In this document: piece after piece, positions 870 through 58,958 of the stretch
How positions within the stretch are numbered: position 1 is the first letter of the stretch
Layout of the letters: every line of letters begins with the position of its first letter
NCBI GenBank assembly: GCA_963422735.1
Contig: OY730476.1
Location: 1,184,001-1,248,000 of the forward strand
Reading direction: 5' to 3'
From: Candidatus Latescibacterota bacterium
GTDB taxonomy: Bacteria; Latescibacterota; UBA2968; UBA8231
DNA: 64,000 bases
Translations under genes and position numbers: made by a program
Notes under the pieces: generated by a model
The model's database searches: none
Told to the model about the DNA's origin: nothing
Seen by the model: the letters and a program-made list of their open reading frames with translations, nothing else

Positions 870-879
870 AGGTCACCTG

Positions 880-4504: not shown

Positions 4505-4509
4505 GACGT

Positions 4510-5598: not shown

Positions 5599-5604
5599 GG
5601 CGTC

Positions 5605-6762: not shown

Positions 6763-6834
6763 CAAACGCCTCCGCAAAAAATTGACCTCCACCGCAATCG
6801 TCATTGTAGGGACAACCCCCTAGCGAACATCCAC

Positions 6835-7401: not shown

Positions 7402-7460
7402 GCCTGTTGCCTTTCCCTTGTTTATCTGCCCTTACCCATGTTGGGCGCAGGGTCAATCCT

Positions 7461-8864
7461 TCATTTAAGCAACATCACCTTGCCCACAGCCTGTTGATCG
7501 CCAGCGAGCAACTGCACCAGATACGCGCCGTTGCCCACCGATTCACCGGCGGCATTGCGACCATCCCAGTAGAGAACGTGCCGCCCGGCGGCCACCGTAC
7601 CGGAAGTCAGAGTGCGGATGGTGCGGCCCAAGACGTCGTGGACGGTCAATTCAACCGGAGTGTTGGCCTGCCAGACCGCAAAGGGAATCTGCACCGAAGC
7701 GTTAAAGGGATTGGGATAGGCCGCCTCTAAGGCGAATTCCTGTGGCAAGCCGGCGGCGGTTTCTTCCACAGCCGTGAGGACAGACATATCGCCCAACACC
7801 ACGATGTTCGAAGGCGGTAGTCCAGTATCGATTGGACCGTGCAGAAAAGCTCCGGTAGCCGCGTCGTAGAATTTGAGCCCGGCGGCGTCCGGCTCGGCGA
7901 AGGAACCGCGGTCGGCGACGATCAAGCGGCCGCCATCTACAGCCAAGCTGGAGATAAAACCGCCGCTGGTATTTTCTAAGGGCGCACCCACAGTGCCGCT
8001 GGACAAATCAAAGGGCCGGACGCTGTTGGCGAAGTCTTCGTCCGCGACTACGGCATAGCCCCGATTTTGATCGACAAGTACTAAGGATGTAATATCGCCG
8101 CCTAAGTCATCCTCGCCTACGGCCAGTCCGAGGCTGCGGTTGGTGGCCGTATCGACGATTTCCACTCCGCCGGATCGGTCGCCAAAATTGACCACTACCC
8201 CCACGGCGATCTGCTCGTCGACCACGGCCATGCTGTTGGGATTAGTGGCACTGAGGGCAATGCCTTGCACACCCTCAGTGCCCGGGTCCACATCCACGAG
8301 GGTGTCGCTGTTGAGATCGACGACGATCAGGTAACTGACGTCGGCTGGTCCCCACCCACTGTTGCGGTCGAGGCGCTGGCAACTTAAGTAGAGCCGCTCG
8401 CCCACGCGGACGATTTGCGATACTTCGGGCAGGCCATCCGCATCGGCGAAAGCGCTCAGATCAATCTCGCCTAATTCCGCGCCGTCCTCGGGATTGACGA
8501 TCAGCAGGGACGCGGTGTCGTAACGCGTCACGTACGCCTTGTCGGGTGCGACGATCTCAATGTCGTGCGGATTGGCACCATTGCCCACCGAAAACTGAGC
8601 CAGAGGCGTGCGCAAATCCATCGCGTCCAGCACCAAAATATTGTCCTGCCCCAAGCGGTTGACGATATAGACGCGGCCGTCGTGGTAGTGCCCCACGGCA
8701 TCCGAGTGGACGCCCAACAGATTCACCTCGGCCGCGGCTGCATCCGCGGCCAAAAAGGCCGTGCTGCCGGTGGAAAAGTCCGTGGTGATGACGAAGAGAT
8801 CGCTCTGCGCCGACGACGAGCTCACCAGCAGCAAAAGGGCGACTAAAATGGAAATGCGGTACAC
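7461..8864 (-). CDS. Secreted beta-propeller (YncE/BtuG-like) with C-terminal FlgD-Ig/T9SS-type domain
   Basis: GTG start after AAGGAGG; signal peptide; NPHDI...KAYVT blades; C-term AYPNPFN..HDVLGR..WDGRN..G.Y. Confidence 0.75.
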   Translation of the reverse strand: MYRISILVALLLLVSSSSAQSDLFVITTDFSTGSTAFLAADAAAAEVNLLGVHSDAVGHYHDGRVYIVNRLGQDNILVLDAMDLRTPLAQFSVGNGANPHDIEIVAPDKAYVTRYDTASLLIVNPEDGAELGEIDLSAFADADGLPEVSQIVRVGERLYLSCQRLDRNSGWGPADVSYLIVVDLNSDTLVDVDPGTEGVQGIALSATNPNSMAVVDEQIAVGVVVNFGDRSGGVEIVDTATNRSLGLAVGEDDLGGDITSLVLVDQNRGYAVVADEDFANSVRPFDLSSGTVGAPLENTSGGFISSLAVDGGRLIVADRGSFAEPDAAGLKFYDAATGAFLHGPIDTGLPPSNIVVLGDMSVLTAVEETAAGLPQEFALEAAYPNPFNASVQIPFAVWQANTPVELTVHDVLGRTIRTLTSGTVAAGRHVLYWDGRNAAGESVGNGAYLVQLLAGDQQAVGKVMLLK

Positions 8865-8916
8865 GTAAATCCTCCTTGGGGAATGGATGGTGTGGCGAGT
8901 GGCGAGTTTCCACTTT

Positions 8917-11181
8917 TCACGGGTACGTAGCATAGTGCATGGAAATCCCATAGGAGCGGCCCGGCAGCGGGTAGCCCCACAGATCGGCTACTTGATTGTC
9001 GGTCAGGTTGCGCAACTCCCAAGACAAGAAGATACCCTCGACCAGCGGCACGGTGCCGCCGAGGTTGTACAGGGCGCGAACGGGCACGGCGCGCAGATTG
9101 GCCCGGTCGAGGAAATGCCGGCTTTCGCGGCTGAATTCGCCGTAGATCTCTGCGCTCCTTAGGCCGAGGGAGAGGCGCGTATTGAGCCGATGGCGCGGTG
9201 CATTGGGCAGGTCGTTGCCCTGTTCAAAAGAGAACGGGGTGCGGTTTTCGGCGCGCTGGTACGCGTAATTGCCGCGCAGCGTCAGCCTTGGCAACAACCG
9301 CGCCTCGACCCGCGTTTCTACGCCGCGCAGCAAGGCGCGTCCCATATTGTGGGGCCGCGACACCCGCTGCGAGTTCTGCACAAAGCGAATGAGGTCTTCG
9401 ACGCGGTTGCGATAGTACACGGCCTCGGCCAGAATCAGCCCCACTCCATCGTCGGGACGACGGAAAACCAAGCCCAGATCCCAGTTGTGCCCTTCTTCAC
9501 TAACGAGTTTGGTATTGCCAATCACCGCGCCCCGGTCTCCGAAGAGTTCAAAGAAATTGGGGGCGCGATGATAGCGGCCATTGTGGGCTTTGAAGGCCAA
9601 GCCAGCCCCTAAGTCCAAGGCCGCACCTACTCGATAGCCCCACAGGATTTCGCCGTTATCCCGATTCGGCAATACCGCGCTGGGAGCAAAGTTCTTCCGG
9701 TCGAAAAGGCGATCGTCAAGACCTTCTGCCTGCGTGCCGGCATTGAAGGTCAAGCGATGCCCCAACGACACTTCCACCTCAGTCCCAACGGCTAACGCCC
9801 GGCGACGACTGCGCAAGAGGTGACTATCGGCCCGGAGCAGATCGTCGGGCATAAAAGTTTCGTGCCGAGCCGCGACAAAAGCAGTGAGCAGGGACCGGCC
9901 GGGCAGCAGGGCATTCACTTCGCTGCGCAGGCCCAAGCTTTGGGTGATGTTGCGGTCGTGCTGGCGGCCTAAGCCCACTTCGCCGCGCCGATCCCGGTAC
10001 TCGTCTTTTTCGCGAGAGTGGTACGCTCTGAGTCGGTACCCGGCGCGGCTGTGGCCCAGCGGGCCGAAGAGCACCGCTTCGGCGATATGGCGCCAAGTGT
10101 CGTAGCGGGTGTGCAGTGACTGGTTGTTGCCAATGCCGGGGATGCCTTTGTAGCTCAGGTCAAAGGTGTTGTGGATATGCAAGCGGCTGGCTCCCAAGCT
10201 GCGCCCGATTTTGGCTAGGCTGCGCAAGCTGCGAAAATCGCTGTTGAGCCGTCGCGCCCAACCGTCGTCTTGGGCGTTGTACTCAGTGCCGTTGTCGTCC
10301 CAAAAGCGGAAGTCGTTGCGGCTGGCTCTGTAGTTGACTAAGCCCAAGTACTTCCAGCCTTTATAGGGGCCACTAAGCGAAGCACCCAGTTGGCGGGTGT
10401 CGTACGAACCGGTAGCCGTGTGCAAGCGCGTACGGACTTTGCCACCGAGTGGCTGCGTGCGGATGTGGACGACGCTGCCGAGGCTGTTGCCGCCAAAGTG
10501 CGCCGGCACTGCGCCCCGGTATATATCGACGCTTTCGACGCCGCCGATGGGCAGACCGCCTAGATCGACGCCACCACCCACGGCTTGGTTGAGCGGCACC
10601 CCGTCGAGGAAAACTTGGACCTGTTCGGCCGTAGACCCGCGAATGGAGAGCGTGCTAAAACTGCCCAACCCTCCGTAGCGGCGTATGTTGACGCCGGCAG
10701 CGCGATCTAGGGTTTGGGCTAGGTCCGCGCCGGGAGCGCGCTGGTTGCCCAAGGCGATGGTTTCGACGAAAGAGGCAATATGCTTGCCCTCGGAGTCGCG
10801 GCGGGCGCGGACCACCAACTCGCCCATGAGCAGGGGCAGAGATTGCAGGTGCAACTTGACTGAGGTGGGGGCTACGCCGATTTGGATGTGGTCTTGCAGG
10901 GGCCGGTAGCCCAGCCGTTCCACGCGCAAATCCCAAGTGCCTGTTGCCAGATTTTCGAGACGGAAGGTGCCGGTCGTATCGCTGCGGACGGAACGACCGG
11001 CACCGGAGGGGGCACTCAGCGTCAATACGGCACCGGATACGGGGCGTCCCGCGTCTTGGTCGAGCAATCGGCCCTGTAGAGACCCGGCTAAGAGAGCCTC
11101 GGGATGCAGGGCCAGTAAGAGAGAAACAATAAAAAAGCCCGCCCTCGAATGAGAGCGGGTCTGGGTGCTTGTACTAGGCAC
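8917..11181 (-). CDS. btuB: TonB-dependent cobalamin receptor with N-terminal carboxypeptidase-regulatory-like domain
   Basis: Plug motifs SIRGS, VFLDGVPLN, VDIYRG; C-term NLTD..YPLPGR; first gene after the B12 riboswitch. Confidence 0.85.
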   Translation of the reverse strand: MPSTSTQTRSHSRAGFFIVSLLLALHPEALLAGSLQGRLLDQDAGRPVSGAVLTLSAPSGAGRSVRSDTTGTFRLENLATGTWDLRVERLGYRPLQDHIQIGVAPTSVKLHLQSLPLLMGELVVRARRDSEGKHIASFVETIALGNQRAPGADLAQTLDRAAGVNIRRYGGLGSFSTLSIRGSTAEQVQVFLDGVPLNQAVGGGVDLGGLPIGGVESVDIYRGAVPAHFGGNSLGSVVHIRTQPLGGKVRTRLHTATGSYDTRQLGASLSGPYKGWKYLGLVNYRASRNDFRFWDDNGTEYNAQDDGWARRLNSDFRSLRSLAKIGRSLGASRLHIHNTFDLSYKGIPGIGNNQSLHTRYDTWRHIAEAVLFGPLGHSRAGYRLRAYHSREKDEYRDRRGEVGLGRQHDRNITQSLGLRSEVNALLPGRSLLTAFVAARHETFMPDDLLRADSHLLRSRRRALAVGTEVEVSLGHRLTFNAGTQAEGLDDRLFDRKNFAPSAVLPNRDNGEILWGYRVGAALDLGAGLAFKAHNGRYHRAPNFFELFGDRGAVIGNTKLVSEEGHNWDLGLVFRRPDDGVGLILAEAVYYRNRVEDLIRFVQNSQRVSRPHNMGRALLRGVETRVEARLLPRLTLRGNYAYQRAENRTPFSFEQGNDLPNAPRHRLNTRLSLGLRSAEIYGEFSRESRHFLDRANLRAVPVRALYNLGGTVPLVEGIFLSWELRNLTDNQVADLWGYPLPGRSYGISMHYATYP

Positions 11182-11228
11182 CGGTGGACCAGCCTTTCTG
11201 CCGAAGGGTGTCGTTCACCTCGGTCGCA

Positions 11229-11395
11229 GGCAGGTCTCCTGACTTCCGGTTAAACGCCCTCGGCACCTTCCCAATTCGCTGCGGAATCAGTGGATACGCC
11301 AAGGACGAACCGATCACAGTGGCGGGACCGCGGCAGATTTACACTGCCTTCCCTATTCTCCCAACTGCCGTGCGGCAGCGGGCACCTGCGCCGTT
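11229..11395 (-). promoter_or_regulatory. Cobalamin riboswitch
   Basis: Minus strand: AGGTGCCC..AATAGGGAAGGCAGTGTAAATCTGCCGCGGTCCCGCCACTGTGA..CCACTG..GGGAAGG..AAGTCAGGAGACCTGCC (B12 box); upstream of btuB. Confidence 0.95.
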
Positions 11396-11425
11396 ATTTG
11401 ATGGGCTATTAAAAGGGCTGCGTTA

Positions 11426-12019: not shown

Positions 12020-12676
12020 CTAATCCCTCAGTAGAATGTTCTGCTCCTTCAGGCTCTGGATTAATTGGCTAAATTTAGGCACCAATCGGATCACGATACG
12101 TCGATTAGGGGACTGTTCACCCTTTGTTCCGGTTAGGACAACCAGCTCCCGCTCACCTAAGCCAACTGGGACGATATCGAAATTTTCCCAAGTGAAGCCG
12201 ACCTGCTCCCAATAGTCCACTACAGTTTGAGATCTTTTCAGGGATAGGCTGCGATTGTATTCCCTCTCGCCGTAACTGTCGGTGTGGCCCTCTACCATAA
12301 TACTGAACAATCTACTGTCTTTTTTTTCAATAAACTGTTTTAATTTTTGACCCATTCGTCTAAGCCGATTTTGCCCTTCGACGGGAATATCATCCAGATC
12401 AGATTCATCAAAAGAGAACAAGATATCACTGCGCATCACAATAGTACCCTCTTCCACGACGACGTCTTCCCCCTCCATAAACTCCTCTAATTCATCGAGA
12501 TCTTTCTCTATTTTACCCACCAATTCTTCCAGCGTCCGCAGACGGCTCAGATCCACATAATTCTTGATCACCATCACAACGAGAAAAAAAGTGACGCAAA
12601 TGAAAATAGCCGTGATTGCATCCGTGAAAGAAGGCCAGAAATTGAGCCCACTATGACTACTGCGATTCCTTTTCAT
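12020..12676 (-). CDS. ZorB/MotB-like protein (single TM with conserved Asp + OmpA-like peptidoglycan-binding domain)
   Basis: FWPSFTDAITAIF TM; ILFSFDES, VEGHTDS, NRSLSLKRS, NRRIVI. Confidence 0.88.
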   Translation of the reverse strand: MKRNRSSHSGLNFWPSFTDAITAIFICVTFFLVVMVIKNYVDLSRLRTLEELVGKIEKDLDELEEFMEGEDVVVEEGTIVMRSDILFSFDESDLDDIPVEGQNRLRRMGQKLKQFIEKKDSRLFSIMVEGHTDSYGEREYNRSLSLKRSQTVVDYWEQVGFTWENFDIVPVGLGERELVVLTGTKGEQSPNRRIVIRLVPKFSQLIQSLKEQNILLRD

Positions 12677-12715
12677 CTAGGGCTGCTTTCCCAAGCATTC
12701 AGCCGGTGGGCCTGA

Positions 12716-14353
12716 CTATTCCTTGCTATCTTTCTTAAATAATCGACGGATCCAACCCCAATTTCTTCGCGGTCGTACGGTTATAACTTGCGGCGATTTC
12801 GCTATGCCGTCTAACTGTTTTTCTATAGCCTGCGCCGTCGCATGCATGTCTTCGAGTTGGGGGATTACCTGATCTATAGCCTTCAGTACTTGGAGATCCT
12901 CGTCCGCTTTTTTAAACCCTTGGTTGATGGCTCCTACCATTTGATCTAGCTGGTTCTGCAACGTTCCTGTCGCTTTGCTCAATCCCTGCAGATCTTGGCG
13001 GAGTCTTTCCAATTCATCTTGTAAGGGTTTCTTGGCCCGTTCAAACGCCTCTCCTTGCTCGTTGAGCGTCTTCTTCTGAAGTTCGAGTAAGGCATCTTGG
13101 CTCTCCCTGACAGCTATGAGCAGGGTCTGGATGTTCACGAAATTGGGACGATAATCTGTGTTATTCAATCCTCTTATCGTATCCAGAGTCTCGGCTAGGC
13201 CATCTCCTAGGGTCTCCATTCGCGTCTCAAATGACTTAGATTGTCTGTCCATCCGATCATCAAAGGCTTGAAACTGTCGGGCCATCAAGTGCTCGCTCTC
13301 CTTGAGCATAGTATCGACGCTGCTCTTGAGCGCATTCAGAGGCTCGCTTAGCCGCTCAAAGTTCTCGATGTGTCGAGAAAACTCTATAGCCGCTCTCATT
13401 ATTTCTTTCGCCCCCGTAGCTACCGTACCCTTGTGCTGCTCAAAAATCTCCGCGCTCTTCAGACTGGCCTCGCTACTTTCCTTGAGCTTCGTGCCGCTCT
13501 CTTCTATAAGTGAGACCATGCGGGCGTTACTATCGACAATTTCCTTGAGTCTTTTGTCTAAGTATTCGGAAAGAGTAGTGAAATACTTATCGTATAGGTC
13601 GTTTACTGTTCGAGTAAAGACGCGACTTAAACGCAACTGAGGCGGGATCACCGCAAACTTGGGAGCGATCTTCGCGTTGAAGCACTCTTCCAGATTTGCC
13701 AACAATCTGTTCCTACTACGAAGTAGTAAGCTATACGGAGCATTGAGTATTAGAGAAAAAGAAAGTCCTAAAAAACTGGTAATGAACGCCAGCGGCATCC
13801 CGCTTACGGACTGTCCTAATCCTGTTAGGATGGTATTAAATACATCCTCTATTTTTACATCTTGACTCGACGTCGGTGAAATCTGCGCTCCTTGGATAAT
13901 ACCTGGGATAGGTATGACCACGATTATTAATCCAACGAACGTGCCTAGCAGGCCCAATAGAATAAGGCTACTGGTAAGTGTGCGGAATGCTTCGTCGTGT
14001 CGGGCGAGTTCATGTTCGATAGAGCCGATAAGACTATCTACATCTGGAGCTTTATTTTGTCGGTATAAGGCTTCAAAATGTTTGAGCCAACGGACGGCCA
14101 AGGGATGCCGGGCACCCCTAATAACACTTTCGGGAGCCTGCTCTGTCTTTTCCTCTATATTGAAATCAGGATTGCTTCTCTCCCATCTCTCCATCGTACG
14201 CAATCCGTTGCGATATTGCCGCGTTTTTATGCACCCTCGGACAAATAGGACAAATGCATATAGGCCGACCAAGATAATGAGAACGACAAAAATTTCCCGA
14301 ACCTGATCGCTGTTTTGGGCTAAGAATTCTAAAAGGAGATCTAAATAAGGCAT
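12716..14353 (-). CDS. ZorA/MotA-TolQ-ExbB-like channel subunit with long helical C-terminal tail
   Basis: Three TM segments; LGLLGTFVG and AFITSFLGL channel motifs; about 300 aa coiled-coil-like tail. Confidence 0.82.
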   Translation of the reverse strand: MPYLDLLLEFLAQNSDQVREIFVVLIILVGLYAFVLFVRGCIKTRQYRNGLRTMERWERSNPDFNIEEKTEQAPESVIRGARHPLAVRWLKHFEALYRQNKAPDVDSLIGSIEHELARHDEAFRTLTSSLILLGLLGTFVGLIIVVIPIPGIIQGAQISPTSSQDVKIEDVFNTILTGLGQSVSGMPLAFITSFLGLSFSLILNAPYSLLLRSRNRLLANLEECFNAKIAPKFAVIPPQLRLSRVFTRTVNDLYDKYFTTLSEYLDKRLKEIVDSNARMVSLIEESGTKLKESSEASLKSAEIFEQHKGTVATGAKEIMRAAIEFSRHIENFERLSEPLNALKSSVDTMLKESEHLMARQFQAFDDRMDRQSKSFETRMETLGDGLAETLDTIRGLNNTDYRPNFVNIQTLLIAVRESQDALLELQKKTLNEQGEAFERAKKPLQDELERLRQDLQGLSKATGTLQNQLDQMVGAINQGFKKADEDLQVLKAIDQVIPQLEDMHATAQAIEKQLDGIAKSPQVITVRPRRNWGWIRRLFKKDSKE

Positions 14354-14381: not shown

Positions 14382-15332
14382 TCATTTCGCTAGTAAGATT
14401 CCGGCCTTGACAATTACCTCAGTTCCCCGACGTAATCCAGGTGTAACAAATCGAATCACGTGACCGCGGTCGACCTGAGAATCTTCTCGCTCATCGGAAA
14501 TTTGGTGATCTTCTGGCGAGTATTTGTCCCCTTGCTTTGGCCAAATCAACTCAAGGTCGCGTTCTTGGGCAAACCTTTCCAACTTTGCGGGTTTCTGTTC
14601 TAGCGATTTTTTTTTGCCATCCAACTGTTCGATTAAACCGATCAGTGCAGAATCCCACGGGCTGCTACGACTGTCTATCTTAGCTTGGATCGTCGTCCAT
14701 TGATCTTTGAGAGCCGATCCCTCCGATATAAAAGAGACAAGATCCAATTTATTCACTGCCTCTTTGATCTTTTTAATGTCCTCGTCAATGGTCTCGGCAT
14801 ACTGTATCGACGGCATACTCTCTTCAGGTTCTAGTGGAAGTTCGTCGAGCATTTCTCGGAAACGATCTCGGGTATTTGTAATCTTTGAGTATCTTTTGTT
14901 CCATTCTTCGTCAGCATCCCGTACTTCTTCTTGGAACGATTTTAGTCCCTTTTCCACATCGGCCTCTAGCTTTCGTAGCTCTTGAAATTTGGCGTTGGTA
15001 GGGATAGATTGACAGAGATCTACGTAATCGTCGTGGGACGCTTGTATATTGTCGTGGAACTTTGTCAGCTTTTTTCTGAAGTTACTCAAATCGTCCAAAA
15101 ATACGCCAACTTTCTTCACAAAGCTCTCTTCCGCTCCATCGAAGCCCTTGGCTACATCGAGGATATCCGAGAAGACGAGATCGCCAAGACCGCCTTTGTG
15201 TAGTTCTTCGCGGATCTGTCTTGTCTTGGAGACGATTTCCTGCAGAGCTTGGAGATCTTTCTCCCAGTGGGCAACTTCGTTGTCTAGAGCGTCAACCTTT
15301 TGTTGGAATTCTTCCATAGATATCCTATCCAT
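14382..15332 (-). CDS. Coiled-coil protein with C-terminal GrpE-like beta domain
   Basis: Heptad-rich N-terminal 250 aa; C-term GDKYSPEDHQ..GHVIRFVTPGL..VIVKAGILL resembles the GrpE head; follows an Hsp70 gene. Confidence 0.7.
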   Translation of the reverse strand: MDRISMEEFQQKVDALDNEVAHWEKDLQALQEIVSKTRQIREELHKGGLGDLVFSDILDVAKGFDGAEESFVKKVGVFLDDLSNFRKKLTKFHDNIQASHDDYVDLCQSIPTNAKFQELRKLEADVEKGLKSFQEEVRDADEEWNKRYSKITNTRDRFREMLDELPLEPEESMPSIQYAETIDEDIKKIKEAVNKLDLVSFISEGSALKDQWTTIQAKIDSRSSPWDSALIGLIEQLDGKKKSLEQKPAKLERFAQERDLELIWPKQGDKYSPEDHQISDEREDSQVDRGHVIRFVTPGLRRGTEVIVKAGILLAK

Positions 15333-15396: not shown

Positions 15397-18300
15397 TCAA
15401 CTATAGTTAAAGTCCTCGCATTTCAAGTATTCATCATAGATTTCTTCAAAATCACTTCCATCCTTTTCTTTTCCTATCGCGAAGTTGTAATAGAGCCGAC
15501 CGAGATTGCTTTCGTCGACTCGAAGCTCGAGCTTGTACTGCCAATACGCGGCTTGCTTAAAAGCTCTGTTCTCTAGCGGCATGGGAATATCCGCTGCTTT
15601 CTGCCGATCTGCTTTCCGATTTTTGTAGTTCCAATCGAAGAATTCGTACAGTAAGATACTACGAATCTTACGATCATTAGGAGAAACCCTGCTCGCATAG
15701 CGATGTACCTCTCCCTTATCTAGGGAAATCCAACGGTCGAAAATGGGGCTGAAGCCTCGCATTGGATTGTAGGAACCTATCGGATAATTTAGCTTGTGTA
15801 TCCCGAAGACTCGAAGTCTGAACTCTGGATCGCGTTGAGACATGCTGTAAATAGCCGCTCCCGAAGCCACGCTCGCCTTCAGGCCATTATTGGAACCTGA
15901 AAGAGTAGAGTCCGAAAACTCTTTAGCCTGTATCATCTCCCGGGCGACTTCTTTCACAATCGGCAATTTGGACGAATTGCCGGCCAAGATCAGGTGGTCT
16001 AGCCGGAATTCCGATATAATCTCCCGCTTGAAAAGTTCCTGCTGCATCATAGCTAGTTTTTTGAAGCCCCATTCCAATTCTCGGCTGAGCACAGAGCGAA
16101 TAGCTTGGTAATCCATAGAGCTAAGTTCCTCCGGCAAGGCGTCGCCGTTGATGCTGCGCTTTAAGCCCTCCGTGACTTGAAATACATCGCGCTCTTCCCG
16201 GCTAACTAACTCAATCTTGGGCCAATTCATTTTCTCGTCGCTAGCTAGCAGGTCCAACAATCCCTTATCTTTTGTCTGGATCAGTTCCTCGTAGCGGTCC
16301 TGGGAAAAACATTGGTCGAACAACTGGTATGTCTTGCTGTTTGTCTTAATCTCCTCAGCTAACCGATAGAGACACAGAAAGTTCCTTTTCACGATACGAT
16401 CTTGGGTGCGTAAGCCATCGCGAAGATCTTTTGCAAAGGGATAGCGACTGCGGTACTGTTCAGGGACGAGTTGCTCGTAGAAATATTTAGCCAAGTGAAA
16501 CGTCAGCAGGTTTCCTCCCAGCCGATTGTCACCATCGGAACCGAGAATTTCCACTTGCGCTTCATCATTATCCATAGTGTAACGTACGATGGACATATCG
16601 GTCGTTCCCCCACCACAGTCGAATACCCCAATTATCTGTTCATCCATATCATCATTATCAAGCTGCTTCCACACATAATACACCGCTATAGCTTCAGGTT
16701 CACTAATGGCTAGGTCAAACTTAATGTCGCGATCCTGCAGAGCCTTTTCGGCCGCATCCCGCAGAGCCTGTTTTTGGCGATTGAATACTGCCGGATAAGT
16801 CAGCACGCCCTCTTCGGGCAAATACCCGAATTCTCCAATGAAGTGCTCTACCATAAACCGGAGATAAATAGCTACTTGGTCAACCGGAGTCAGGCTGATA
16901 TGCCGCCTATTGATAGGGGGATGCCCGTTGATCAAGATGCCTTCCGACATCCCGGTAGAAATATAGATATTCTGATCGTCGGGTTGACTGAGAGCATATT
17001 TGAAATTCCAGCAGATACTGCTCATAGAATGAAGGTCGTTCATCTGCTGAAATGGCTGACGCCCAAAGCGCATGATGGCTTCCTCGCTCTCGGTCGCCAC
17101 TAAGTGATGCTCGTTAGGCTCCAGAGGTTTGGAAAGTTCCAAACGTTCCGTTTTCTTATTTGTTGTCAGAAGCTGAAAGACAGTAGGCACTTCGACACGA
17201 GGTTCATTGGTTTCAAATGCTGCCAAGCGAGGCATTGTTTCTTCATCTTCAACAACATAGGCCAAGCAAGAATTGGTCGTCCCAAAATCGATACCAATAG
17301 GATAATCTAACGGTTTGGGAGGAATTACTTCGACAGAGAGTGAATACCTATCTTCGAACGCCGGGGCTTCCGCTCCTCTAGCCTCCCCCTTGACGATGAT
17401 CTCGGGTTTAAAATACTTTGATTCTGTTACCCAAGGGATTTCGATAGTCTTTATTTGCAACTGGAGATCCAGCACACTCTCCTCATCAGCTCCCGCCGTT
17501 GAAATCTGAGGGTTAAGGATGACCGGTGCCTTCTTGGTGTCAATGACCTGCAGCCAAGGCGTATCGCTGGTCACGCTATTTATGCGTAGTGGTTCGCCCC
17601 GTAAGTGCGTAATGGTGGCACTCACCTCTTTCTGTCTTCGACTTCCGCTTATAAGTGCCGTATCGCCGGATAAACCCAGCGGATTGAAATCCACCTTGAG
17701 CACCGGCTGACGAGTGTACTTTAGATTGAGATGAAAATCGATATCACCTCTGTTCTGGATGGGAAAAACGAGATGTACAGGATGCCCTTCTTCAGACAGA
17801 GGCTGATTTTGGGTGAGCCTTACCGAAAAGGCTTTGTCTGGACCCAAGCGGAAGGGGTAGCTTGCCTCCGCTGGCACCATATCCACCACCTGCTCTCCCT
17901 TGGCCAGCCGGGGAGGCTTTTCCAAAACCACTTCGCTTGCGGCATAAAGGGCCAGATCGTGCCTTTGAGCTTCCTGATTTACCGGCCACACCTGTGCGCC
18001 GTCAGTGCCTTGGTCAAACTCCCGCCCCTGCTCGTCAGTCAGCCAGATTCGGGGAGCCTTTTGGACCCGGTAACGAAATGAAATCGGTGGCAGCGTGGAG
18101 TGCAGGATCAACCGTCCCCGTTGGCCGAGACGCCCGGTATGTAGCCGGCGTATTTCTATTTTTTCTTTTGGAGCCAAAGAAACGGGCCAATCCGCTTCCG
18201 AAACCCATTCTCCCCATTCCACTCCATCGAGACGTTCCAGTTCCACGGGTATCTTCCCGGTATTCTCAAACCGCATGATGACTGGATAGCCTTCAAAGAG

Positions 18301-18456
18301 CGTCAATAGCTCATTGGGCTTGGGAAATACCTCTAGATGGGCGAGTTGAGTCCCGCAACTGCTGCAAAAGATGCTTCCCCTCCCATAAGGCCACTGACAA
18401 ACAGGACAAGCACCCATCGCCTTATCGGCCCGCTCTTGGCTCACTTCCCTAAGCAT
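15397..18456 (-). CDS. Atypical Hsp70-family ATPase with N-terminal Zn ribbon and Ig-like domains
   Basis: CPVC..FCSSCG; IGIDFGTTNS, TYPAVF, ISEPEAIA, FDCGGGTTD, LGGN, LAGNSSKLP; no canonical DnaK substrate-binding domain. Confidence 0.88.
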   Translation of the reverse strand: MLREVSQERADKAMGACPVCQWPYGRGSIFCSSCGTQLAHLEVFPKPNELLTLFEGYPVIMRFENTGKIPVELERLDGVEWGEWVSEADWPVSLAPKEKIEIRRLHTGRLGQRGRLILHSTLPPISFRYRVQKAPRIWLTDEQGREFDQGTDGAQVWPVNQEAQRHDLALYAASEVVLEKPPRLAKGEQVVDMVPAEASYPFRLGPDKAFSVRLTQNQPLSEEGHPVHLVFPIQNRGDIDFHLNLKYTRQPVLKVDFNPLGLSGDTALISGSRRQKEVSATITHLRGEPLRINSVTSDTPWLQVIDTKKAPVILNPQISTAGADEESVLDLQLQIKTIEIPWVTESKYFKPEIIVKGEARGAEAPAFEDRYSLSVEVIPPKPLDYPIGIDFGTTNSCLAYVVEDEETMPRLAAFETNEPRVEVPTVFQLLTTNKKTERLELSKPLEPNEHHLVATESEEAIMRFGRQPFQQMNDLHSMSSICWNFKYALSQPDDQNIYISTGMSEGILINGHPPINRRHISLTPVDQVAIYLRFMVEHFIGEFGYLPEEGVLTYPAVFNRQKQALRDAAEKALQDRDIKFDLAISEPEAIAVYYVWKQLDNDDMDEQIIGVFDCGGGTTDMSIVRYTMDNDEAQVEILGSDGDNRLGGNLLTFHLAKYFYEQLVPEQYRSRYPFAKDLRDGLRTQDRIVKRNFLCLYRLAEEIKTNSKTYQLFDQCFSQDRYEELIQTKDKGLLDLLASDEKMNWPKIELVSREERDVFQVTEGLKRSINGDALPEELSSMDYQAIRSVLSRELEWGFKKLAMMQQELFKREIISEFRLDHLILAGNSSKLPIVKEVAREMIQAKEFSDSTLSGSNNGLKASVASGAAIYSMSQRDPEFRLRVFGIHKLNYPIGSYNPMRGFSPIFDRWISLDKGEVHRYASRVSPNDRKIRSILLYEFFDWNYKNRKADRQKAADIPMPLENRAFKQAAYWQYKLELRVDESNLGRLYYNFAIGKEKDGSDFEEIYDEYLKCEDFNYS

Positions 18457-21400
18457 TGGCGTCCGCCATCACATATATGTCGTCTTTGCAGTGAGGATCG
18501 CGATAGTCTAGGCGTTTGGCAAAACTATCTTTGTCCTGCAAGTATCGCTTTATACGGTCGTCCAATTCGCTGTCGCTGATATCCAAACGCTCTAGCACAT
18601 CATTGAATTTTTCGCCGAAAGCCTTGTCGAGCAGGTTGTGGAACAAGTCGTTCGCATCCACACTATTGCCGTGTATCACAACTTTGGTAGCGGGATATAC
18701 ATGCTCCACTAGATGGCTTTGGAGGGCCAAGTACTGCTCAAAAGCGAGGTTATTGCCATTCAAGTGCCAGTTGTCCTGAATCTTTTGCACCTCTTGGCGC
18801 AGCCTATCTCTTATAAACTGGTCTCGGGCCAAAGTCCGGCGTGCCATCTCGAGATTAAGTCCGTAATCGTCCTCGCGCTTTCGGCCCTGTGCGCGGTAGG
18901 TCCGGTAGAATCTTCGGTTGTCATAAGTCACTACCCCGAGTAAGATACCACCAATGAGCGGCTGTAGGGCATCCACTAGCATCCGCGCTTCTTGGTCGTT
19001 TTTAGGCGGTAGGATCTCCGGATATTTGATATAGTCCTTGGTCGTGTACCGCTTGTATACATTTTGCGGCATTCCACGGTTTTTTTCGTATGCTTCGTGC
19101 AGTTTATTCAAATTGTCGATAGCGAACAGGGGAAAGGCCATCCATTGGCTGACAAATATAACCGAATCGGGGGCGTGGTACTCCACTTGAGAGGCTCGCA
19201 CGTTTTGTTCGATTTGCGTTTTCCACCTGTTTTCACCTGGAGGAAGTCCTATTGTTCTCTGGATGTGAGGATCCATACCCGAGAAACGTGGTTTTGACTC
19301 GGACATCCGTGGTTCGGCCAGCCCTGATCTTTTCAGTATCTCATCTTTCTCATTATGGTTCTGGTTTTCCACCTCTTGAACGGCGTTTCTATCAGCATAG
19401 AACTCCTTAAATAGGCCAAACGAGAACTCACTCAATGAATCCTCTACCTCTCCCCAATCACGAGGGGTATTGTCCCTATTCGCAGAGCGATTGAAGATAA
19501 TGCGGGTACAATCGCGTATGGCATCGATCTCGTTCCCTTCGCGAGTAGCGTATTCAGCAAACAGCAGCCGGGCTTCTTGCGAGCGGAAATAGGTCTCCAA
19601 AACACCTTGTAAAACTTCATTGAAACCGGCACCCGTCCGTCCTTTTTTATGGCGTAGATACGTCTCTATTTCCTCGCGGTAGTTAAGTTCGGGCATGAGA
19701 TTGAGATTGCGCACACTGGACATCCGCTTGCTATAAGAACGATAGAAGCCCCCGAAGCGGTTAGCCATCTCTTGAAGATGATCTTGAAATTTCTCCACCT
19801 TGGCCAGCAAACCACTGAGTTGCACATGAAGTTCGCCATCTGCACCCCGGACTTGGGTCTGTTGGCCGACAAAGCCGATCATGTTGTCAAGCAGGCCCTT
19901 TTCCTGCTCATGTCTCCCGGAATTGGGATTGAGCAGCCGACGGGCCGCCTCCTGCTCATAGCGATCAGTGACCCATTGCTTGAGTTGGTCCCTGACGGCC
20001 TCTACCTGCTGTTCCAGATTACGGGTGAAGAGCTGGGCATTCTGATCAAAGGACTTCCGTTTGCGTTCTTCATAATAGTTGATAGCAATGCGTTTCGTTA
20101 AGACGGCAAAGGGCATCTCCTGTCTAGCCGCTCGTAGGAGAGCCTCGTATTTATTGTACTCGTCGGAAAATTCGATTGGGATCGGCGGAGCCTCTGGTGC
20201 TTCTATGGGCCGGTTCTCCATGGCCTGCAATTCCTCTTTGACCCGCTCCAGTGCATCGACGGCGATCTTCAGCCACTCAACCATGAATTTGGGGCCGAAC
20301 TCCAAGGGGTCGCACAGTAATTTCAGACATTCATCTTCTACTCGCTTTTCGAGCTCGGGACGGTCTGAGCCAATATTTTCCAAAATCTGCTTCACACCAT
20401 CGCCCTTTTGGGTGCCTTGCTGTAACAGTCTTTCCCCTACTCGTCTCCGCACTTGGCTAACCCATTCAACCATCTGCTGCCGCGTTTGCTCCACTTGGCG
20501 GTCCAAAACCTTTTGGTCCCTTACCACCGGTGCCGCGAGCAAATCGTCCCGCAATTTATTGAAAGCCGGTTCGATCAACTCGTTGACGACCTCGTCTATC
20601 AAGGTGAAATCCTTTCCCGGCTTGACCAAGCAGCGTTTCAAAAAGAGATCCTTAGTCAGGCCCATCTGCTCCATGCGGGGTTTGACATCGGCATCATCAA
20701 AGCCCTGAGGAATTCTGTTGTCCTTGGCTATGATGAGTTCTACCAGATACTGAGCGCAGCGGTTGGCAGCCGCATTGGCCATACGAGGCTGATTCAATTC
20801 AATCTGGGAAAGCCCAAAAGATGCATACCGACGTGGAAAATACTGGACATAGTTTCCGCTGCTGAAGATGGCCATATCTTGTAGGTACTGCTCCATATTG
20901 GAACGTACGCTGCGCTTTTGAGCGGCGAATCTGGTCTTGTCGAAATCCAGCAGTAGAAATTCAGCGATCATCTGGAATGTATCGGTGAATTCGTCAATGC
21001 GTTCTCCGGCCATATTCTCCTTGTCGAGCATATAGACCGTCGAAAAAGGCGGTGCTTCCACCTGCCGTGAGGTTCCATCCCAATTAAATTCGTGGGTAGA
21101 GTACTCGCTTGTCTCCTCGTCTGTGGTGGCAATAAACCGGGGCTGCATGAAGTACTCGAGTTCCTTGAGCGCGGCAAAGCCGTTGGCATGGACGGCCTCT
21201 ACTCCTGTGGGATCCACTTTATCGTCGAAAACCGTGGGCATGGCCAGAAAAGCCGTGCGCGTAGAAGTCGAGAACAAAACTCGACATAGAAATCCGACGT
21301 CGATAAAGCAACCAGACCCCGTTCCACCACCGAGGGAAGACACAGTAATAATCTCCAAGGTGCTAGTATCTACCTCATAATCAGGGTAATGGCTGTTCAT

Positions 21401-21901
21401 GTGTGCAACGGCCTCTTGGGCAGTTACCTTTCTCCCCAATCTGTTGATGGCATCGCGAATTCTTGTGTAATGGTGGAAGAAAGCCAACCGTCCGAAGGAA
21501 CGGATCTGCGCTGCCCCTTGCGTGATAGCATTGTCGGCCATCGCGTCTAGTTCGCTGGGCAACCAGTCCCATATATGCGGATAGGCATTCTTGTTGCGCC
21601 GGTATCCAGCCAACTCCTCGGGCTGGACCCGCCCATCAATCTTCTGTGAAATGGTAAGGTCAATGAGCCTGTCCAACTCGTCAGGTACCTCCTCGCTCAG
21701 GGACTCATTGCGGATGTCAGTATCGAACCACAGGTATTCCATGACGGGTAAACCCGCTACTCTGTACTTTTCGTAGAACAGCCGCCGCAGCCGCCGCAGT
21801 ACTTCCTTTCCCGTACCGCCCAAGCCGATCAAAAGCGTGGGACGGATATCTATCGTTTGGTTTTCTTTTTTTGCTTTAGTTAGAGTACCCACCTTAGCCA
21901 T
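18449..21901 (-). CDS. Large FtsZ/tubulin-like GTPase (Tubulin_2 / FtsZl1 family)
   Basis: LLIGLGGTG, GAAQIRSFGRLAF, SSLGGGTGSG signature; about 800 aa helical C-terminal region; ATG 21901 with AAGGAG RBS. Confidence 0.92.
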   Translation of the reverse strand: MAKVGTLTKAKKENQTIDIRPTLLIGLGGTGKEVLRRLRRLFYEKYRVAGLPVMEYLWFDTDIRNESLSEEVPDELDRLIDLTISQKIDGRVQPEELAGYRRNKNAYPHIWDWLPSELDAMADNAITQGAAQIRSFGRLAFFHHYTRIRDAINRLGRKVTAQEAVAHMNSHYPDYEVDTSTLEIITVSSLGGGTGSGCFIDVGFLCRVLFSTSTRTAFLAMPTVFDDKVDPTGVEAVHANGFAALKELEYFMQPRFIATTDEETSEYSTHEFNWDGTSRQVEAPPFSTVYMLDKENMAGERIDEFTDTFQMIAEFLLLDFDKTRFAAQKRSVRSNMEQYLQDMAIFSSGNYVQYFPRRYASFGLSQIELNQPRMANAAANRCAQYLVELIIAKDNRIPQGFDDADVKPRMEQMGLTKDLFLKRCLVKPGKDFTLIDEVVNELIEPAFNKLRDDLLAAPVVRDQKVLDRQVEQTRQQMVEWVSQVRRRVGERLLQQGTQKGDGVKQILENIGSDRPELEKRVEDECLKLLCDPLEFGPKFMVEWLKIAVDALERVKEELQAMENRPIEAPEAPPIPIEFSDEYNKYEALLRAARQEMPFAVLTKRIAINYYEERKRKSFDQNAQLFTRNLEQQVEAVRDQLKQWVTDRYEQEAARRLLNPNSGRHEQEKGLLDNMIGFVGQQTQVRGADGELHVQLSGLLAKVEKFQDHLQEMANRFGGFYRSYSKRMSSVRNLNLMPELNYREEIETYLRHKKGRTGAGFNEVLQGVLETYFRSQEARLLFAEYATREGNEIDAIRDCTRIIFNRSANRDNTPRDWGEVEDSLSEFSFGLFKEFYADRNAVQEVENQNHNEKDEILKRSGLAEPRMSESKPRFSGMDPHIQRTIGLPPGENRWKTQIEQNVRASQVEYHAPDSVIFVSQWMAFPLFAIDNLNKLHEAYEKNRGMPQNVYKRYTTKDYIKYPEILPPKNDQEARMLVDALQPLIGGILLGVVTYDNRRFYRTYRAQGRKREDDYGLNLEMARRTLARDQFIRDRLRQEVQKIQDNWHLNGNNLAFEQYLALQSHLVEHVYPATKVVIHGNSVDANDLFHNLLDKAFGEKFNDVLERLDISDSELDDRIKRYLQDKDSFAKRLDYRDPHCKDDIYVMADANA

Positions 21902-21953
21902 AGTATTCTCCTTCAATTTTGCTTCAACCAGTCATTAAATGCTGTCTGAAAAC

Positions 21954-22043: not shown

Positions 22044-23087
22044 TCACTCGGAATTTTCAGCGGCCGATGGCCGGGCGACAAGTTTTACTATCACCACAAT
22101 GAGAATTAGGATCACCATCCAAGCGATGAAGACTCGCCATTCAATTTGCGACCATGACACCCAGCCCATTGAAAAATCAAAAAGGCCGCTCAACCCACAG
22201 GAGGCGATCACCGCAAAGCCCCCCCACGATACGAGGGCGGATATGCCAAAAGCCGTGGCCGGGTGCTTGTCTCGGTTCTTAATGAGCCCGCTAAAGAGTA
22301 TATAGACCGAAAAGATATAGACGATTACAGAAAACACCAGAATCCAGACTATGCGCCCAACCTCCACATAGCGAAAGGTGCCCTTCGATCTGGTCACCGG
22401 TGGCGGGACTCCTACCCGAACAGGTTCAAATTGGTCCGAGGGGATGCCCAGCAGCGGTTTAGCTTCATCAATTGAGACCGCAAAATTGAGATTCTGCCCC
22501 TCGCCATGGCTAGAGCTTAGATTAAAACTTACCACGCCAATTACCTCCCCGGTCTGGTCGAATAAAGGCCCGCCACTATTGCCCGGCGATACGGCAGCAT
22601 CCGTCTGAATCAGCCTGAGGCCCTCCGGGGTAGTACGGACCTCGGAGATAATCCCTTCAGTGACCGAGTACTCTAGCCCTAACGGGTTGCCTATTGCCAC
22701 GACGGGATCGCCCGAACTTATATACTCCCCTGATCCAAGCCTAGACTGCTGTAGGTGTTGGTTGCGCGGATCGACGTTTATCACCGCTAGATCTTTGAGT
22801 TCGTCTTGGGCGACAACGCCCGTAATCGGCATCCAAGTTCCGTTGAACGGCTTGGCCCATCCTTCTTTGATGCCCTTGATTACATGGTGCGCCGTGAGAA
22901 TTTGGCCCGTTGACTTGACGATGATTCCGCTCCCCACTTCCTCTCCTTCATTGGTAGAGACCTTGAGGAATACTACGCTTCCCTTCTCTTCCTTGGCAAT
23001 CTGCTGAGTAAACGTGGAGCCGCTTTGTCCCGGCCCGCCACACCCCATCCAGCCGATAATCAGTATTATGATGATGTGCCGTTTCAT
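22044..23087 (-). CDS. Trypsin-like (S1C/HtrA-type, no PDZ) serine protease with lipoprotein-like signal and three C-terminal TM helices
   Basis: ILTAHHVI, DLAVI, GNPLGL, SPGNSGGP; N-term MKRHIIIILIIGWMGC. Confidence 0.88.
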   Translation of the reverse strand: MKRHIIIILIIGWMGCGGPGQSGSTFTQQIAKEEKGSVVFLKVSTNEGEEVGSGIIVKSTGQILTAHHVIKGIKEGWAKPFNGTWMPITGVVAQDELKDLAVINVDPRNQHLQQSRLGSGEYISSGDPVVAIGNPLGLEYSVTEGIISEVRTTPEGLRLIQTDAAVSPGNSGGPLFDQTGEVIGVVSFNLSSSHGEGQNLNFAVSIDEAKPLLGIPSDQFEPVRVGVPPPVTRSKGTFRYVEVGRIVWILVFSVIVYIFSVYILFSGLIKNRDKHPATAFGISALVSWGGFAVIASCGLSGLFDFSMGWVSWSQIEWRVFIAWMVILILIVVIVKLVARPSAAENSE

Positions 23088-26009: not shown

Positions 26010-26037
26010 AAAATAGACCGCTACTGAGTAATGTCAA
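26010..26037 (-). promoter_or_regulatory. Candidate sigma70 promoter of the 8-gene operon
   Basis: TTGACA-16 nt-TATTTT about 90 bp upstream of the first ATG. Confidence 0.5.
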
Positions 26038-33039: not shown

Positions 33040-33098
33040 AAGTGAAGGTAAATGGGCTGACTACCGATCTCACCTTCCTCAAACGAAAGGAGTCCGTT

Positions 33099-36354: not shown

Positions 36355-36374
36355 GTAAACAGGAGGGAACAGAT

Positions 36375-51760: not shown

Positions 51761-51827
51761 CGCCCGCTGATTTCGATATTCTCATCTAAGAGAGTGAACT
51801 ATTTGAAGAAATCTAAGGAGAGGAATA

Positions 51828-58894: not shown

Positions 58895-58958
58895 GAAATT
58901 TGCTTTGTCTGTGGAATGGGACGAGCGGCTGTCAAGATATAGCATCGGCGGGGGGGGT

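Follow-up and report, generated by a model that had tools for sequence, protein, structure and literature searches.

A ZorAB-like motor pair at the end of an eight-gene operon encoding a tubulin-like GTPase and an Hsp70-like ATPase in Candidatus Latescibacterota

Within a 64,000-nucleotide stretch of a Candidatus Latescibacterota bacterium genome (assembly GCA_963422735.1, contig OY730476.1, positions 1,184,001 to 1,248,000 of the forward strand; hereafter the window), two adjacent genes encode a three-transmembrane (TM) protein with a long cytoplasmic tail, here called A, and a single-TM protein with an OmpA domain, here called B. The two are the last genes of an eight-gene operon arranged around a tubulin-like GTPase and an Hsp70-like ATPase. 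Profile and sequence comparisons point to ZorAB, the membrane motor of Zorya systems, as the nearest characterized relative of A and B, the homology being remote; by the same comparisons, A and B fall outside the Zorya family in its current definition. By analogy with ZorAB, we propose, with a rough probability of 0.55, that an envelope-anchored ion motor signals in this operon to cytoplasmic nucleoside triphosphatases (NTPases), not to nucleases, with a role in biological conflict as the leading version. An earlier note, made from the letters of the window, had presented A and B as a ZorA/ZorB-like pair with no ZorC/D/E nuclease or helicase effector. The pair does not stand alone without an output module: the note overlooked six co-oriented upstream genes, of which the tubulin-like GTPase, the Hsp70-like ATPase, a protease and a vWA-like protein are obvious candidate partners.

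All eight genes lie on the reverse strand and form a run of ~14 kb from 25917 down to 12020, with intergenic distances, from the first to the last gene, of -41, 15, 127, -8, 64, 28 and 39 nt. In order of transcription, the features are as follows, A and B being defined by open reading frame (ORF) call and translation.

26010..26037, reverse strand: promoter-like site, TTGACA, 16 nt, TATTTT (10/12 matches), ~90 nt upstream of the first gene
24664..25917, reverse strand: probable first gene, 417 aa, whose N-terminus has a Zn-ribbon-like CxxD...CxxC motif; overlap of 41 nt between its end and the following gene
23103..24704, reverse strand: membrane protein, 533 aa, with a hydrophobic N-terminal leader, a DGSGS motif (DxSxS, MIDAS-like) and one TM segment at ~418-443
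22044..23087, reverse strand: HtrA/DegP-like serine protease, 347 aa, with TAHHV, DLAV and GNSGGP motifs
18449..21916, reverse strand: tubulin-like GTPase (Tubulin_2, presumably FtsZl1), 1155 aa, with GLGGTGKE and GGGTGSG loops and a ~760-aa C-terminal extension
15397..18456, reverse strand: ATPase resembling the Hsp70 nucleotide-binding domain (NBD), 1019 aa, with an N-terminal Zn ribbon, then ~350 aa of unknown fold, then the NBD
14382..15332, reverse strand: coiled-coil protein, 316 aa, whose C-terminal ~60 aa match GrpE below threshold
12716..14353, reverse strand: A subunit, 545 aa
12020..12676, reverse strand: B subunit, 218 aa, ZorB/MotB-like

A scan for terminator-like sites found none in the 28-nt and 39-nt gaps that flank A. 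The 417-aa gene is probably the start of the operon, and the promoter-like site preceding it is a candidate by position only, since the promoter scan was not enriched over shuffled sequences (11 sites found against a mean of 14.8). The GC content of the block is 45-52%, compared with ~60% in its flanks.

Translation, hydropathy and periodicity analysis of A bear out what had been noticed before, namely a three-TM protein with GLLGTF and AFITS motifs and a tail of about 300 aa that ends in WGWIRRLFKK. The motifs LLGLLGTFVGL, PLAFITSFLGL and NWGWIRRLFKK occupy residues 132-142, 187-197 and, at the C-terminal end, 531-541, and the hydropathy scan delimits three TM segments at residues 20-38, 129-147 and 185-203, which gives the following layout.

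Residues 20-38: TM1
Residues 39-125: helical cytoplasmic domain
Residues 129-147: TM2, containing GLLGTF and Thr138
Residues 185-203: TM3, containing AFITS and Thr192/Ser193, with the helix running on to ~233
Residues ~234-545: helical tail of ~310 aa, ending in the basic-hydrophobic NWGWIRRLFKK

The amphipathic helical periodicity of the tail is strong, its observed power being reached by 0 of 500 shuffles. An AF2 model of residues 1-250, computed from an alignment of 124 sequences, has a pLDDT of 92.8 and a TM3 helix that spans residues 185-233; the full-length model (15 close homologues, pLDDT 43.3) is unusable, its tail being helical at low confidence. The basic-hydrophobic C-terminus is nearly invariant in 15 homologues and may act as a membrane-binding helix or a docking peptide; it resembles the membrane-targeting ends of FtsA and MinD. 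The Pfam MotA_ExbB family scores 21.5 bits on A, just under its cut-off of 22.9. Hu et al, 2024 describe ZorA Thr147 and Ser184 as a polar pair on TM2 and TM3 facing the Asp of the B subunit. Residues T138 (GLLGTF) and S193 (AFITS) of A are at least 90% conserved across the 124 relatives, and the PDB profile alignment and BLASTP alike pair them with the ZorA motifs GTF and AFxTS.

The neighbor described earlier as a PSFTD-TM/OmpA protein is just that. B carries WPSFTDAITAIF at residues 14-25, and the hydropathy scan places a single TM segment at residues 19-37, with Asp19 (WPSFTD) as its first residue. After a charged linker follows an OmpA-type peptidoglycan-binding domain (residues 87-192) with GHTDSYGEREYNRSLSLKR and NRRIV motifs, which matches PF00691 at E 2.1e-12 and 47.7 bits (cut-off 27.2). 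The PADLOC model ZorB1 (PDLC00609) scores 72.3 bits on B, aligning residues 5-212 with positions 10-228 of 232, and residues 2-153 match the PDB ZorB chain 8qyd_F at E 3.2e-6. Asp19 aligns with the Asp of E. coli ZorB-II, to which B is colinear by BLASTP, yet weakly similar (E 0.046); hhalign of the B orthologue profile was powerless (Neff 1). The ExbD/TolR family is not among the Pfam and NCBIfam matches of B.

Family-level comparisons of A relied on two profiles, A2 with 124 sequences of the A family and A3, a core-only profile of 32 sequences built against coiled-coil inflation, while scans of ORFs covered 42 in the window, that is, the eight operon proteins and 34 others. The ZorA and ZorB models are the best-scoring PADLOC defense models for A and B, and no MotA, TolQ or ExbB NCBIfam model reached E ≤ 0.01 on A. 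Searched against the PDB, A2 matched Shewanella ZorA-I (8vvn_C, E 4.3e-17), E. coli ZorA (8qyd_A, E 1.2e-7), S. kujiense ZorA-II (8vvi_F, E 1.3e-4) and ExbB (5sv0, E 3.7e-3), with MotA, PomA and TolQ absent among the best 60 rows; the identities of 8VVN and 8VVI are those given in the corresponding publication. With A3, the only motor chains at E ≤ 10 were three of ZorA, all marginal (0.011, 0.023 and 1.6). Each of the two profiles was also aligned locally with individual reference sequences by hhalign, which gave the following probabilities and E-values.

Deinococcus FtsZl1-linked MotA-like protein: A3 95.6, E 1.2e-8; A2 97.7, E 1.4e-12
E. coli O157 Sakai ZorA-II: A3 88.9, E 2.4e-6; A2 94.9, E 4.1e-8
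TolQ: A3 56.6, E 1.1e-4; A2 63.5, E 6.8e-5
ExbB: A3 41.0, E 2.8e-4; A2 89.9, E 1.7e-6
E. coli MotA: A3 4.6, E 8.7e-3; A2 18.4, E 1.3e-3

The ranking by A2 differs from that by A3 only in placing ExbB above TolQ. In BLASTP, A aligns colinearly with E. coli ZorA-II from TM2 as far as the end of the tail (39.3 bits, E 3e-7, 22% identity over 488 columns). Foldseek searches with the model of residues 1-250 returned mainly ExbB, TolQ and ZorA chains at TMq 0.33-0.58, none of them at E ≤ 1e-3; E-values did not separate the three families, and the top TM-scores (0.57-0.58) and identities (14-17%) were those of ZorA. Of the proposal that the pair is ZorAB-like, then, the architecture stands, as does the order of families, with ZorA above ExbB, TolQ and MotA in every head-to-head test; the curated cut-offs were missed and the beta-hairpin of ZorA was not found. 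PADLOC matched 39 of the 43 nearest remote relatives of A to ZorA models, none above 59.8 bits, which places the whole neighborhood of A outside bona fide Zorya. A flagellar MotAB/PomAB stator was rejected: A has three TM segments, not four, MotA reached hhalign probabilities of only 4.6 and 18.4, and the window holds no flagellar motor gene.

The earlier statement that the operon holds no nuclease agrees with the Pfam, PADLOC and NCBIfam scans, in which no nuclease or helicase family matched any of the eight operon proteins. The absence of a ZorC, ZorD or ZorE effector was likewise upheld: PADLOC models for ZorC/D/E/F/G matched neither the eight operon proteins (E ≤ 0.01) nor the 34 other window ORFs (E ≤ 1e-8). 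The output of the pair may be of some other, non-nucleolytic kind, as the earlier note had supposed, and the upstream genes offer candidates for it.

The largest of these encodes the 1155-aa tubulin-like protein, in which PF13809 (Tubulin_2) covers residues 28-392 against positions 1-355 of 356 (E 7.8e-64, 216.6 bits). Its glycine loops, including GGGTGSG, are invariant across all eight aligned orthologues. Tubulin_2 presumably corresponds to the family described as FtsZl1, judging from matching gene order in Deinococcus. The start of the 1019-aa protein gene overlaps the tubulin-like gene by 8 nt; the protein has IGIDFGTTNS and DCGGGTTD motifs and matches PF00012 (E 4.6e-15, 55.3 bits), Zn_Ribbon_1 in Pfam and the NCBIfam HscA model (residues 387-666 against 2-237). 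No substrate-binding domain was detected in it, and its PDB matches are confined to the NBD residues of DnaK/Hsp70. A GrpE identity for the 316-aa protein was considered and dropped: the Pfam score is 24.5 bits against a threshold of 25.8, and a nine-orthologue profile found no PDB GrpE chain at E ≤ 1, so that we call it a coiled-coil protein with a sub-threshold GrpE-like end. By hydropathy, the protease begins with a hydrophobic leader and has three TM segments towards its C-terminus; it matches Pfam Trypsin_2 (E 3.3e-29) and NCBIfam degP_htrA_DO (141.5 bits, under the cut-off of 416). The 533-aa membrane protein is probably vWA-like by its motif and by Atlas, where vWA clusters reach 0.78-0.82, as leads only, and the best clusters (0.94) are unnamed; Pfam (including vWA), NCBIfam and PADLOC gave no match. 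For the 417-aa protein there is no Pfam, NCBIfam or PADLOC family, and the Atlas leads to beta-propellers are weak (0.77). No P-loop GTPase family was found among the eight proteins with Pfam and NCBIfam. The signature residues are intact, namely B Asp19, A Thr138/Ser193, the tubulin GGGTGSG loop and the Hsp70 phosphate motifs, and so do the protease His/Asp/Ser motifs and the DxSxS of the 533-aa protein.

A word-indexed protein search with A returned 26 proteins including that of the window itself, the 25 others being 73-87% identical and two covering part of A only, and a genome scan with A gave 39 loci, eight of them in Candidatus Latescibacterota metagenome-assembled genomes (MAGs) at 73-85% identity to A. 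In all eight, the genes for B, A, the coiled-coil protein, the Hsp70-like ATPase, the Tubulin_2 protein and the protease occur in the same order. The vWA-like gene is present in seven (83-89% identical), the eighth locus stopping short of it, and the fetched flanks of all eight stop before the 417-aa gene. B is 91-96% identical in the eight loci. Expressed as mean pairwise column identity, conservation is highest in B (0.93), followed by the HtrA-like protease (0.82), A (0.78), the Hsp70-like ATPase (0.77), the Tubulin_2 protein (0.73) and, as the most variable, the coiled-coil protein (0.70); in the TM2-TM3 core of A the column identity is 0.92-0.98. Seven of the eight relatives share the flank downstream of the operon, and island and flank are equally diverged (83-90% nucleotide identity).

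Individual relatives depart from this picture. In one (L002, 2465-3475, reverse strand), the Tubulin_2 gene is split by an insertion sequence (IS) with a DDE transposase. In another (L008, 10243-11595), the A orthologue lacks the first ~100 residues, as a 450-aa ORF whose match begins at residue 102, which may reflect either a genuine truncation or an indel in the assembly. The tail of A contains an in-frame 87-nt (29-aa) tandem repeat that is present in 3.0 copies with a 95% match in a third relative (L003, 11236-11499) and as one copy of the same unit in the window (A tail, 12716-13400). The window protein and its seven intact orthologues are 529-594 aa long, repeat copy number explaining part of the range, and the tail is thus polymorphic in length within one lineage.

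The other 31 loci (L009-L039) belong to Bdellovibrionota, Alphaproteobacteria and unclassified bacteria and share with A only the TM2-TM3 core, at 26-42% identity in tblastn segments. Pfam annotation of 73 proteins from 16 of these orphan loci showed an OmpA-domain gene directly downstream of the A-like gene in 14. Such MotA-like/OmpA pairs are widespread and often adjoin thymidine kinase or 2-oxoacid dehydrogenase genes; we know of no function described for them. Among 1.84 billion representatives, 427 proteins matched the profile at E ≤ 1e-3, but only 14 did so at E ≤ 1e-10 and 5 at E ≤ 1e-30; the immediate family of A is therefore small. Its nearest outside relatives are P0028 (672 aa) and P0030 (626 aa), and tblastn of A against plasmids gave no match. 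A TM-core tree of 100 rows lacks ZorA types I and III, and ExbB, TolQ and MotA were dropped from it because they covered fewer than 60 of the 124 retained core columns. Its branches to ZorA-II and to the Deinococcus protein measure 2.9-3.1, and it does not resolve where these two belong. It does set a clade of the window protein, P0028 and P0030 apart from the orphan clade, 29 of 30 orphans falling in the other set (SH-aLRT 89).

Tubulin-like genes are accompanied by motor genes outside this group as well. The comparative study that introduced FtsZl1 and described its operons (Makarova and Koonin, 2010; PMC2875224) lists vWA, OmpA-like, GTPase and kinase genes as neighbors and proposes membrane remodeling. 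Its supplementary file 5 records FtsZl1 followed by MotA/TolQ/ExbB and OmpA genes in two Deinococcus genomes, among them DR_0538 (FtsZl1), DR_0537 (MotA-TolQ-ExbB) and DR_0536 (OmpA). The same file gives Ava_1848 (FtsZl1), Ava_1849 ('B7', a 524-aa membrane protein) and Ava_1850 (COG1360 motor protein), and its tally comprises FtsZl1 56, COG1360 6, COG2885 4 and COG0265 3, with COG0265 proteases and one Hsp70 neighbor also listed. File 6 labels B7 merely a 'membrane-associated protein'; by size and position, this Anabaena protein may well be an A-type subunit. A plasmid search with Tubulin_2 yielded nine records. On D. radiophilus pRadio2, a tubulin-like gene is followed by a 409-aa MotA-like gene and then an OmpA gene, and the 409-aa product, annotated as a 'methyl-accepting chemotaxis protein', matches A2 with an hhalign probability of 98.5 (E 2.9e-15). 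An IS630 transposase gene stands right after the tubulin-like gene of pRadio2 (L041, 11510-12482), followed by a 246-aa ORF; this event and that in L002 are two independent IS insertions at the same gene family. On plasmids of Allomeiothermus (L040) and Thermus oshimai (L044), a module of vWA, tubulin-like and ~680-aa hypothetical genes adjoins BrxL/BREX and RecQ genes, and in Nostoc and Azospirillum, vWA and tubulin-like genes adjoin caspase/CHAT genes. The Allomeiothermus plasmid carries additional helicase-related and DNA methyltransferase genes beyond BrxL and RecQ. Gene neighborhoods of this kind (BREX, RecQ, caspase/CHAT), together with the IS elements in or right after the tubulin-like gene in two lineages, would count in favor of a conflict-type role for the window operon, as would the assignment of tubulin+vWA and Hsp70+GrpE modules to predicted conflict systems by Kaur et al, 2020.

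In the mechanism that we favor, A and B would form the membrane module of an FtsZl1-centered eight-gene system, as a ZorAB-type ion-driven stator of five A around two B by analogy with the published ZorAB model. B would be anchored to peptidoglycan, and ions would pass its Asp19 and a ring of Thr138 and Thr192/Ser193 contributed by A. The vWA-like protein and the HtrA-like protease, both with leader-like N-termini and TM anchors, would lie in or face the envelope, where they could sense or process something. Candidate partners of the A tail in the cytoplasm are the tubulin-like GTPase, the Hsp70-NBD-like ATPase and the coiled-coil protein. Phage attack, or some other disturbance at the envelope, would engage B with the cell wall and open the ion path; A with its ~310-aa tail would then turn or rearrange, and the tail would recruit or switch the cytoplasmic NTPases. 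The output could be a tubulin-like polymer whose assembly brings about membrane remodeling, containment or growth arrest. While domain anatomy, operon structure, conservation and the remote kinship with ZorAB are shown by the data, we infer by analogy the 5:2 assembly, the ion drive, tail-NTPase contact, the trigger and the output, as well as the function, be it defense or membrane remodeling. A more specific version, in which the wall-anchored motor is a trans-envelope trigger and rotation or rearrangement of the tail gates polymerization of the giant tubulin-like GTPase through the Hsp70-like ATPase and a coiled-coil adaptor, with a periplasmic vWA-like protein and the HtrA-like protease as envelope sensors, is speculative and, taken as a whole, rather unlikely.

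If this specific version held, the operon would represent an immune or stress system of Zorya-like type with a filament as effector and not a nuclease, and FtsZl1 operons unexplained since 2010 would receive an explanation. The general proposal, if true, would make signaling through the tail a modular principle able to drive non-nucleolytic outputs. It would also provide a concrete and testable hypothesis for the FtsZl1/Tubulin_2 operons, a group found across several phyla that has lacked an experimental handle since 2010.

A number of results weigh against this proposal. On the side of the motor, the best PADLOC match of A, ZorA3 at 42.4 bits (E 9.4e-12), is remote, and the NCBIfam scores are far below their cut-offs (antiphage_ZorA_4 16.4 bits against 500; ZorB1 32.8 against 400). 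A searched alone against the PDB matched no solved motor subunit at E ≤ 1, and its TM core alone none at E ≤ 10. DSSP analysis of the predicted model of residues 1-250 (pLDDT 92.8) showed helices only and no beta-hairpin, which is reported as a ZorA-specific element of the cytoplasmic domain between TM1 and TM2, and the main period of the A tail is 3.50 compared with 3.70 in the E. coli ZorA-II tail. On the side of the partners, the eight syntenic genomes are close relatives and so amount to roughly one observation. The 31 orphan loci gave no tblastn match to the tubulin-like, Hsp70-like, coiled-coil, protease, vWA-like or 417-aa proteins, and in the 16 of them annotated with Pfam the neighbors are housekeeping genes, with no Tubulin_2 or HSP70 domain; as these orphan pairs show, such motors also exist without these partners. 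The shared flank and its equal divergence suggest that the operon is inherited vertically within the Latescibacterota group and is not mobile, and in the window no integrase, transposase or known defense gene stands next to it.

Several of these observations feed the most serious competing explanation, a housekeeping envelope and cytoskeleton machine in which the motor would give proton-motive energy or wall anchoring to a tubulin-like filament for shape, division or outer-membrane upkeep and not for defense. The chromosomal position and the flank common to seven of eight relatives, the matching divergence of island and flank, the lack of mobile or defense genes alongside and the housekeeping surroundings of the orphan pairs all agree with it, as does the membrane remodeling proposed in PMC2875224. 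What speaks against a housekeeping machine is the strongly low GC content of the block (45-52% against ~60%), the rarity of the A family (five proteins at E ≤ 1e-30 and 14 at E ≤ 1e-10 among 1.84 billion), the IS in the tubulin gene of one of eight relatives and the truncated A in another, which would be unexpected for an essential machine, and the BREX, caspase and CHAT genes that adjoin tubulin-like relatives. We regard this explanation as possible but doubtful.

That A and B are an independent stator-like module, functionally uncoupled from the upstream tubulin and Hsp70 genes, seems improbable. It would fit the 31 distant loci in which A+B pairs of the superfamily stand alone, and the conservation of B (0.93 against 0.70-0.78 for upstream genes), which suggests different constraints. 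Against uncoupling stand the common strand, the gaps of 28 and 39 nt with no terminator-like site found in either, the gene order kept in 8/8 relatives and the recurrence of the order tubulin-like, MotA-like, OmpA in Deinococcus and, by the assignment of B7 proposed above, probably in Anabaena.

We consider very unlikely a true Zorya whose ZorC/D, ZorE or ZorF/G are encoded elsewhere in the genome. ZorA and ZorB are the top defense models, and the window covers 64 kb of a several-Mb genome; yet the scores of A and B lie far under the family cut-offs, no effector model matched the 42 ORFs, none of the 43 nearest relatives exceeds 59.8 bits on any ZorA model, and in the available descriptions of Zorya, including the E. 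coli Sakai locus, the effectors adjoin zorAB. Least credible of all is an ExbBD/TolQR-type energizer for the neighboring TonB-dependent cobalamin receptor, whose gene lies 839 bp downstream on the same strand: although the fold of A residues 1-250 fits ExbB/TolQ about as well as ZorA by E-value, ExbB and TolQ rank below ZorA-II in the core-profile hhalign, neither TonB nor TolA families turned up among the window ORFs scanned, and the receptor gene differs in GC content. We rejected this reading on account of the OmpA domain of B (with no ExbD/TolR family among the matches of B) and the receptor's own cobalamin riboswitch leader.

The receptor gene (8917..11181, reverse strand, with a Plug domain) is led by a full-length cobalamin riboswitch (RF00174, 108.7 bits, 11212..11404, reverse strand). 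It belongs to a B12-uptake cluster (3488-11181, reverse strand) of TonB-dependent receptor, FlgD_ig protein, cobalamin adenosyltransferase, periplasmic binding protein and ABC ATPase genes, which, having its own riboswitch and normal GC content, is a unit separate from the operon. Its presence makes the earlier remark that no flagellar, tol-pal or tonB genes adjoin the pair only loosely true as regards tonB; the remainder is sound, in that the 42 ORFs contain no TonB, ExbD, TolR, Pal or flagellar motor Pfam family, the sole flagellar-named match being an FlgD_ig Ig-like domain (ORF 7461..8951). Elsewhere in the window, a DUF4411 fragment adjoins an IrrE/Peptidase_M78 protein with a weak PADLOC RmrA match (425-2037, reverse strand), which looks like a toxin-antitoxin or regulator pair. 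A second low-GC stretch (31777-38017, forward strand; 45.6% at 32-34 kb) encodes a beta-propeller protein, an ABC membrane protein, an S8 subtilase-DUF1611 fusion, a BtrH_N/C39-like peptidase, HlyD and two AcrB-type proteins, which may serve in the export or processing of peptides. What looks like the remains of a restriction or defense locus is a low-GC patch ~37 kb away from the operon (50589-53678, forward strand), where a Type III DNA methyltransferase (PADLOC MTase_III, 459 bits) and a 119-aa UvrD/GajB-like helicase fragment are encoded. Finally, a 1583-aa protein (54275-59026, reverse strand) combines FtsX-permease and M28-peptidase domains, with a PADLOC match to CARF_m8--CARF_LolE_TM at 177 bits.

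Among known systems, ZorAB of types I-III (8QYD, 8VVN, 8VVI) is closest in architecture. In both, A has three TM segments with a conserved TM2/TM3 polar pair, and its TM3 is prolonged by a long cytoplasmic tail of helical structure; B crosses the membrane once, with the essential Asp in that segment, lacks an obvious plug and binds peptidoglycan through a domain of OmpA type; and the gene for A precedes that for B; even the sizes are similar (545 aa for A, 550 aa for E. coli O157 Sakai ZorA-II). The similarity of A and B to ZorAB is, however, marginal, the model of A has no beta-hairpin, and the A gene stands at the distal end of its operon, not at the head. Described Zorya, as far as the available accounts go, is a long-tailed 5:2 ion motor that signals into the cytoplasm, with all described effectors acting on DNA, whereas here ZorC/D, ZorE and ZorF/G are replaced by a tubulin-like GTPase, an Hsp70-like ATPase, a protease and a vWA-like protein as partners. 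With ExbB-ExbD and TolQ-TolR, A shares the three-TM fold class (Foldseek TMq 0.33-0.51); it differs in its ~310-aa tail and in profile scores that place these families below ZorA, B has an OmpA domain in place of an ExbD/TolR domain, and TonB, TolA and Pal families were not found in the window. The orphan pairs have the TM2-TM3 core in common with A, including the ILLGLLGTF motif by which they were found, but their A-like proteins are shorter (~370-470 aa) and their B-like proteins longer (337-825 aa), with coiled coils.

Two sets of predicted systems resemble the operon as a whole. Kaur et al, 2020 (PMC7159879) predict GTPase-centric conflict systems with tubulin+vWA or Hsp70+GrpE themes, and these DO-GTPase/GAP1-N2 systems share with the operon Zn ribbons, TM components, trypsin-like peptidases and a predicted membrane-proximal action. 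They differ in that no P-loop GTPase was detected here, nor a GAP1 with Pfam and NCBIfam libraries that may or may not include models for it, in that the two themes, non-overlapping in that text, occur together here, and in that it mentions no MotA-type motor ('mota', 0 occurrences; 'zora', one, as an author name among the references). A literature search, with subscription journals largely outside its reach, found no link of Zorya-type motors to tubulin-like or FtsZl1 systems. The link between FtsZl1 and motor genes is nevertheless already contained in the 2010 supplementary table, where it was not recognized as ZorAB-type; the accessible main text of PMC2875224 has 0 mentions of MotA and regards the OmpA-like proteins as beta-barrels of the membrane. 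Nowhere in the accessible parts of that study are a tubulin-like GTPase, an Hsp70-like ATPase, a coiled-coil protein and a motor combined in a single operon. Here, too, the MotA-like and OmpA genes lie 3' of the tubulin gene, but two extra genes intervene before A, and the operon resembles the FtsZl1 systems in uniting an FtsZl1-type protein of >1000 aa with a membrane protein that is probably vWA-like and with a member of the OmpA family.

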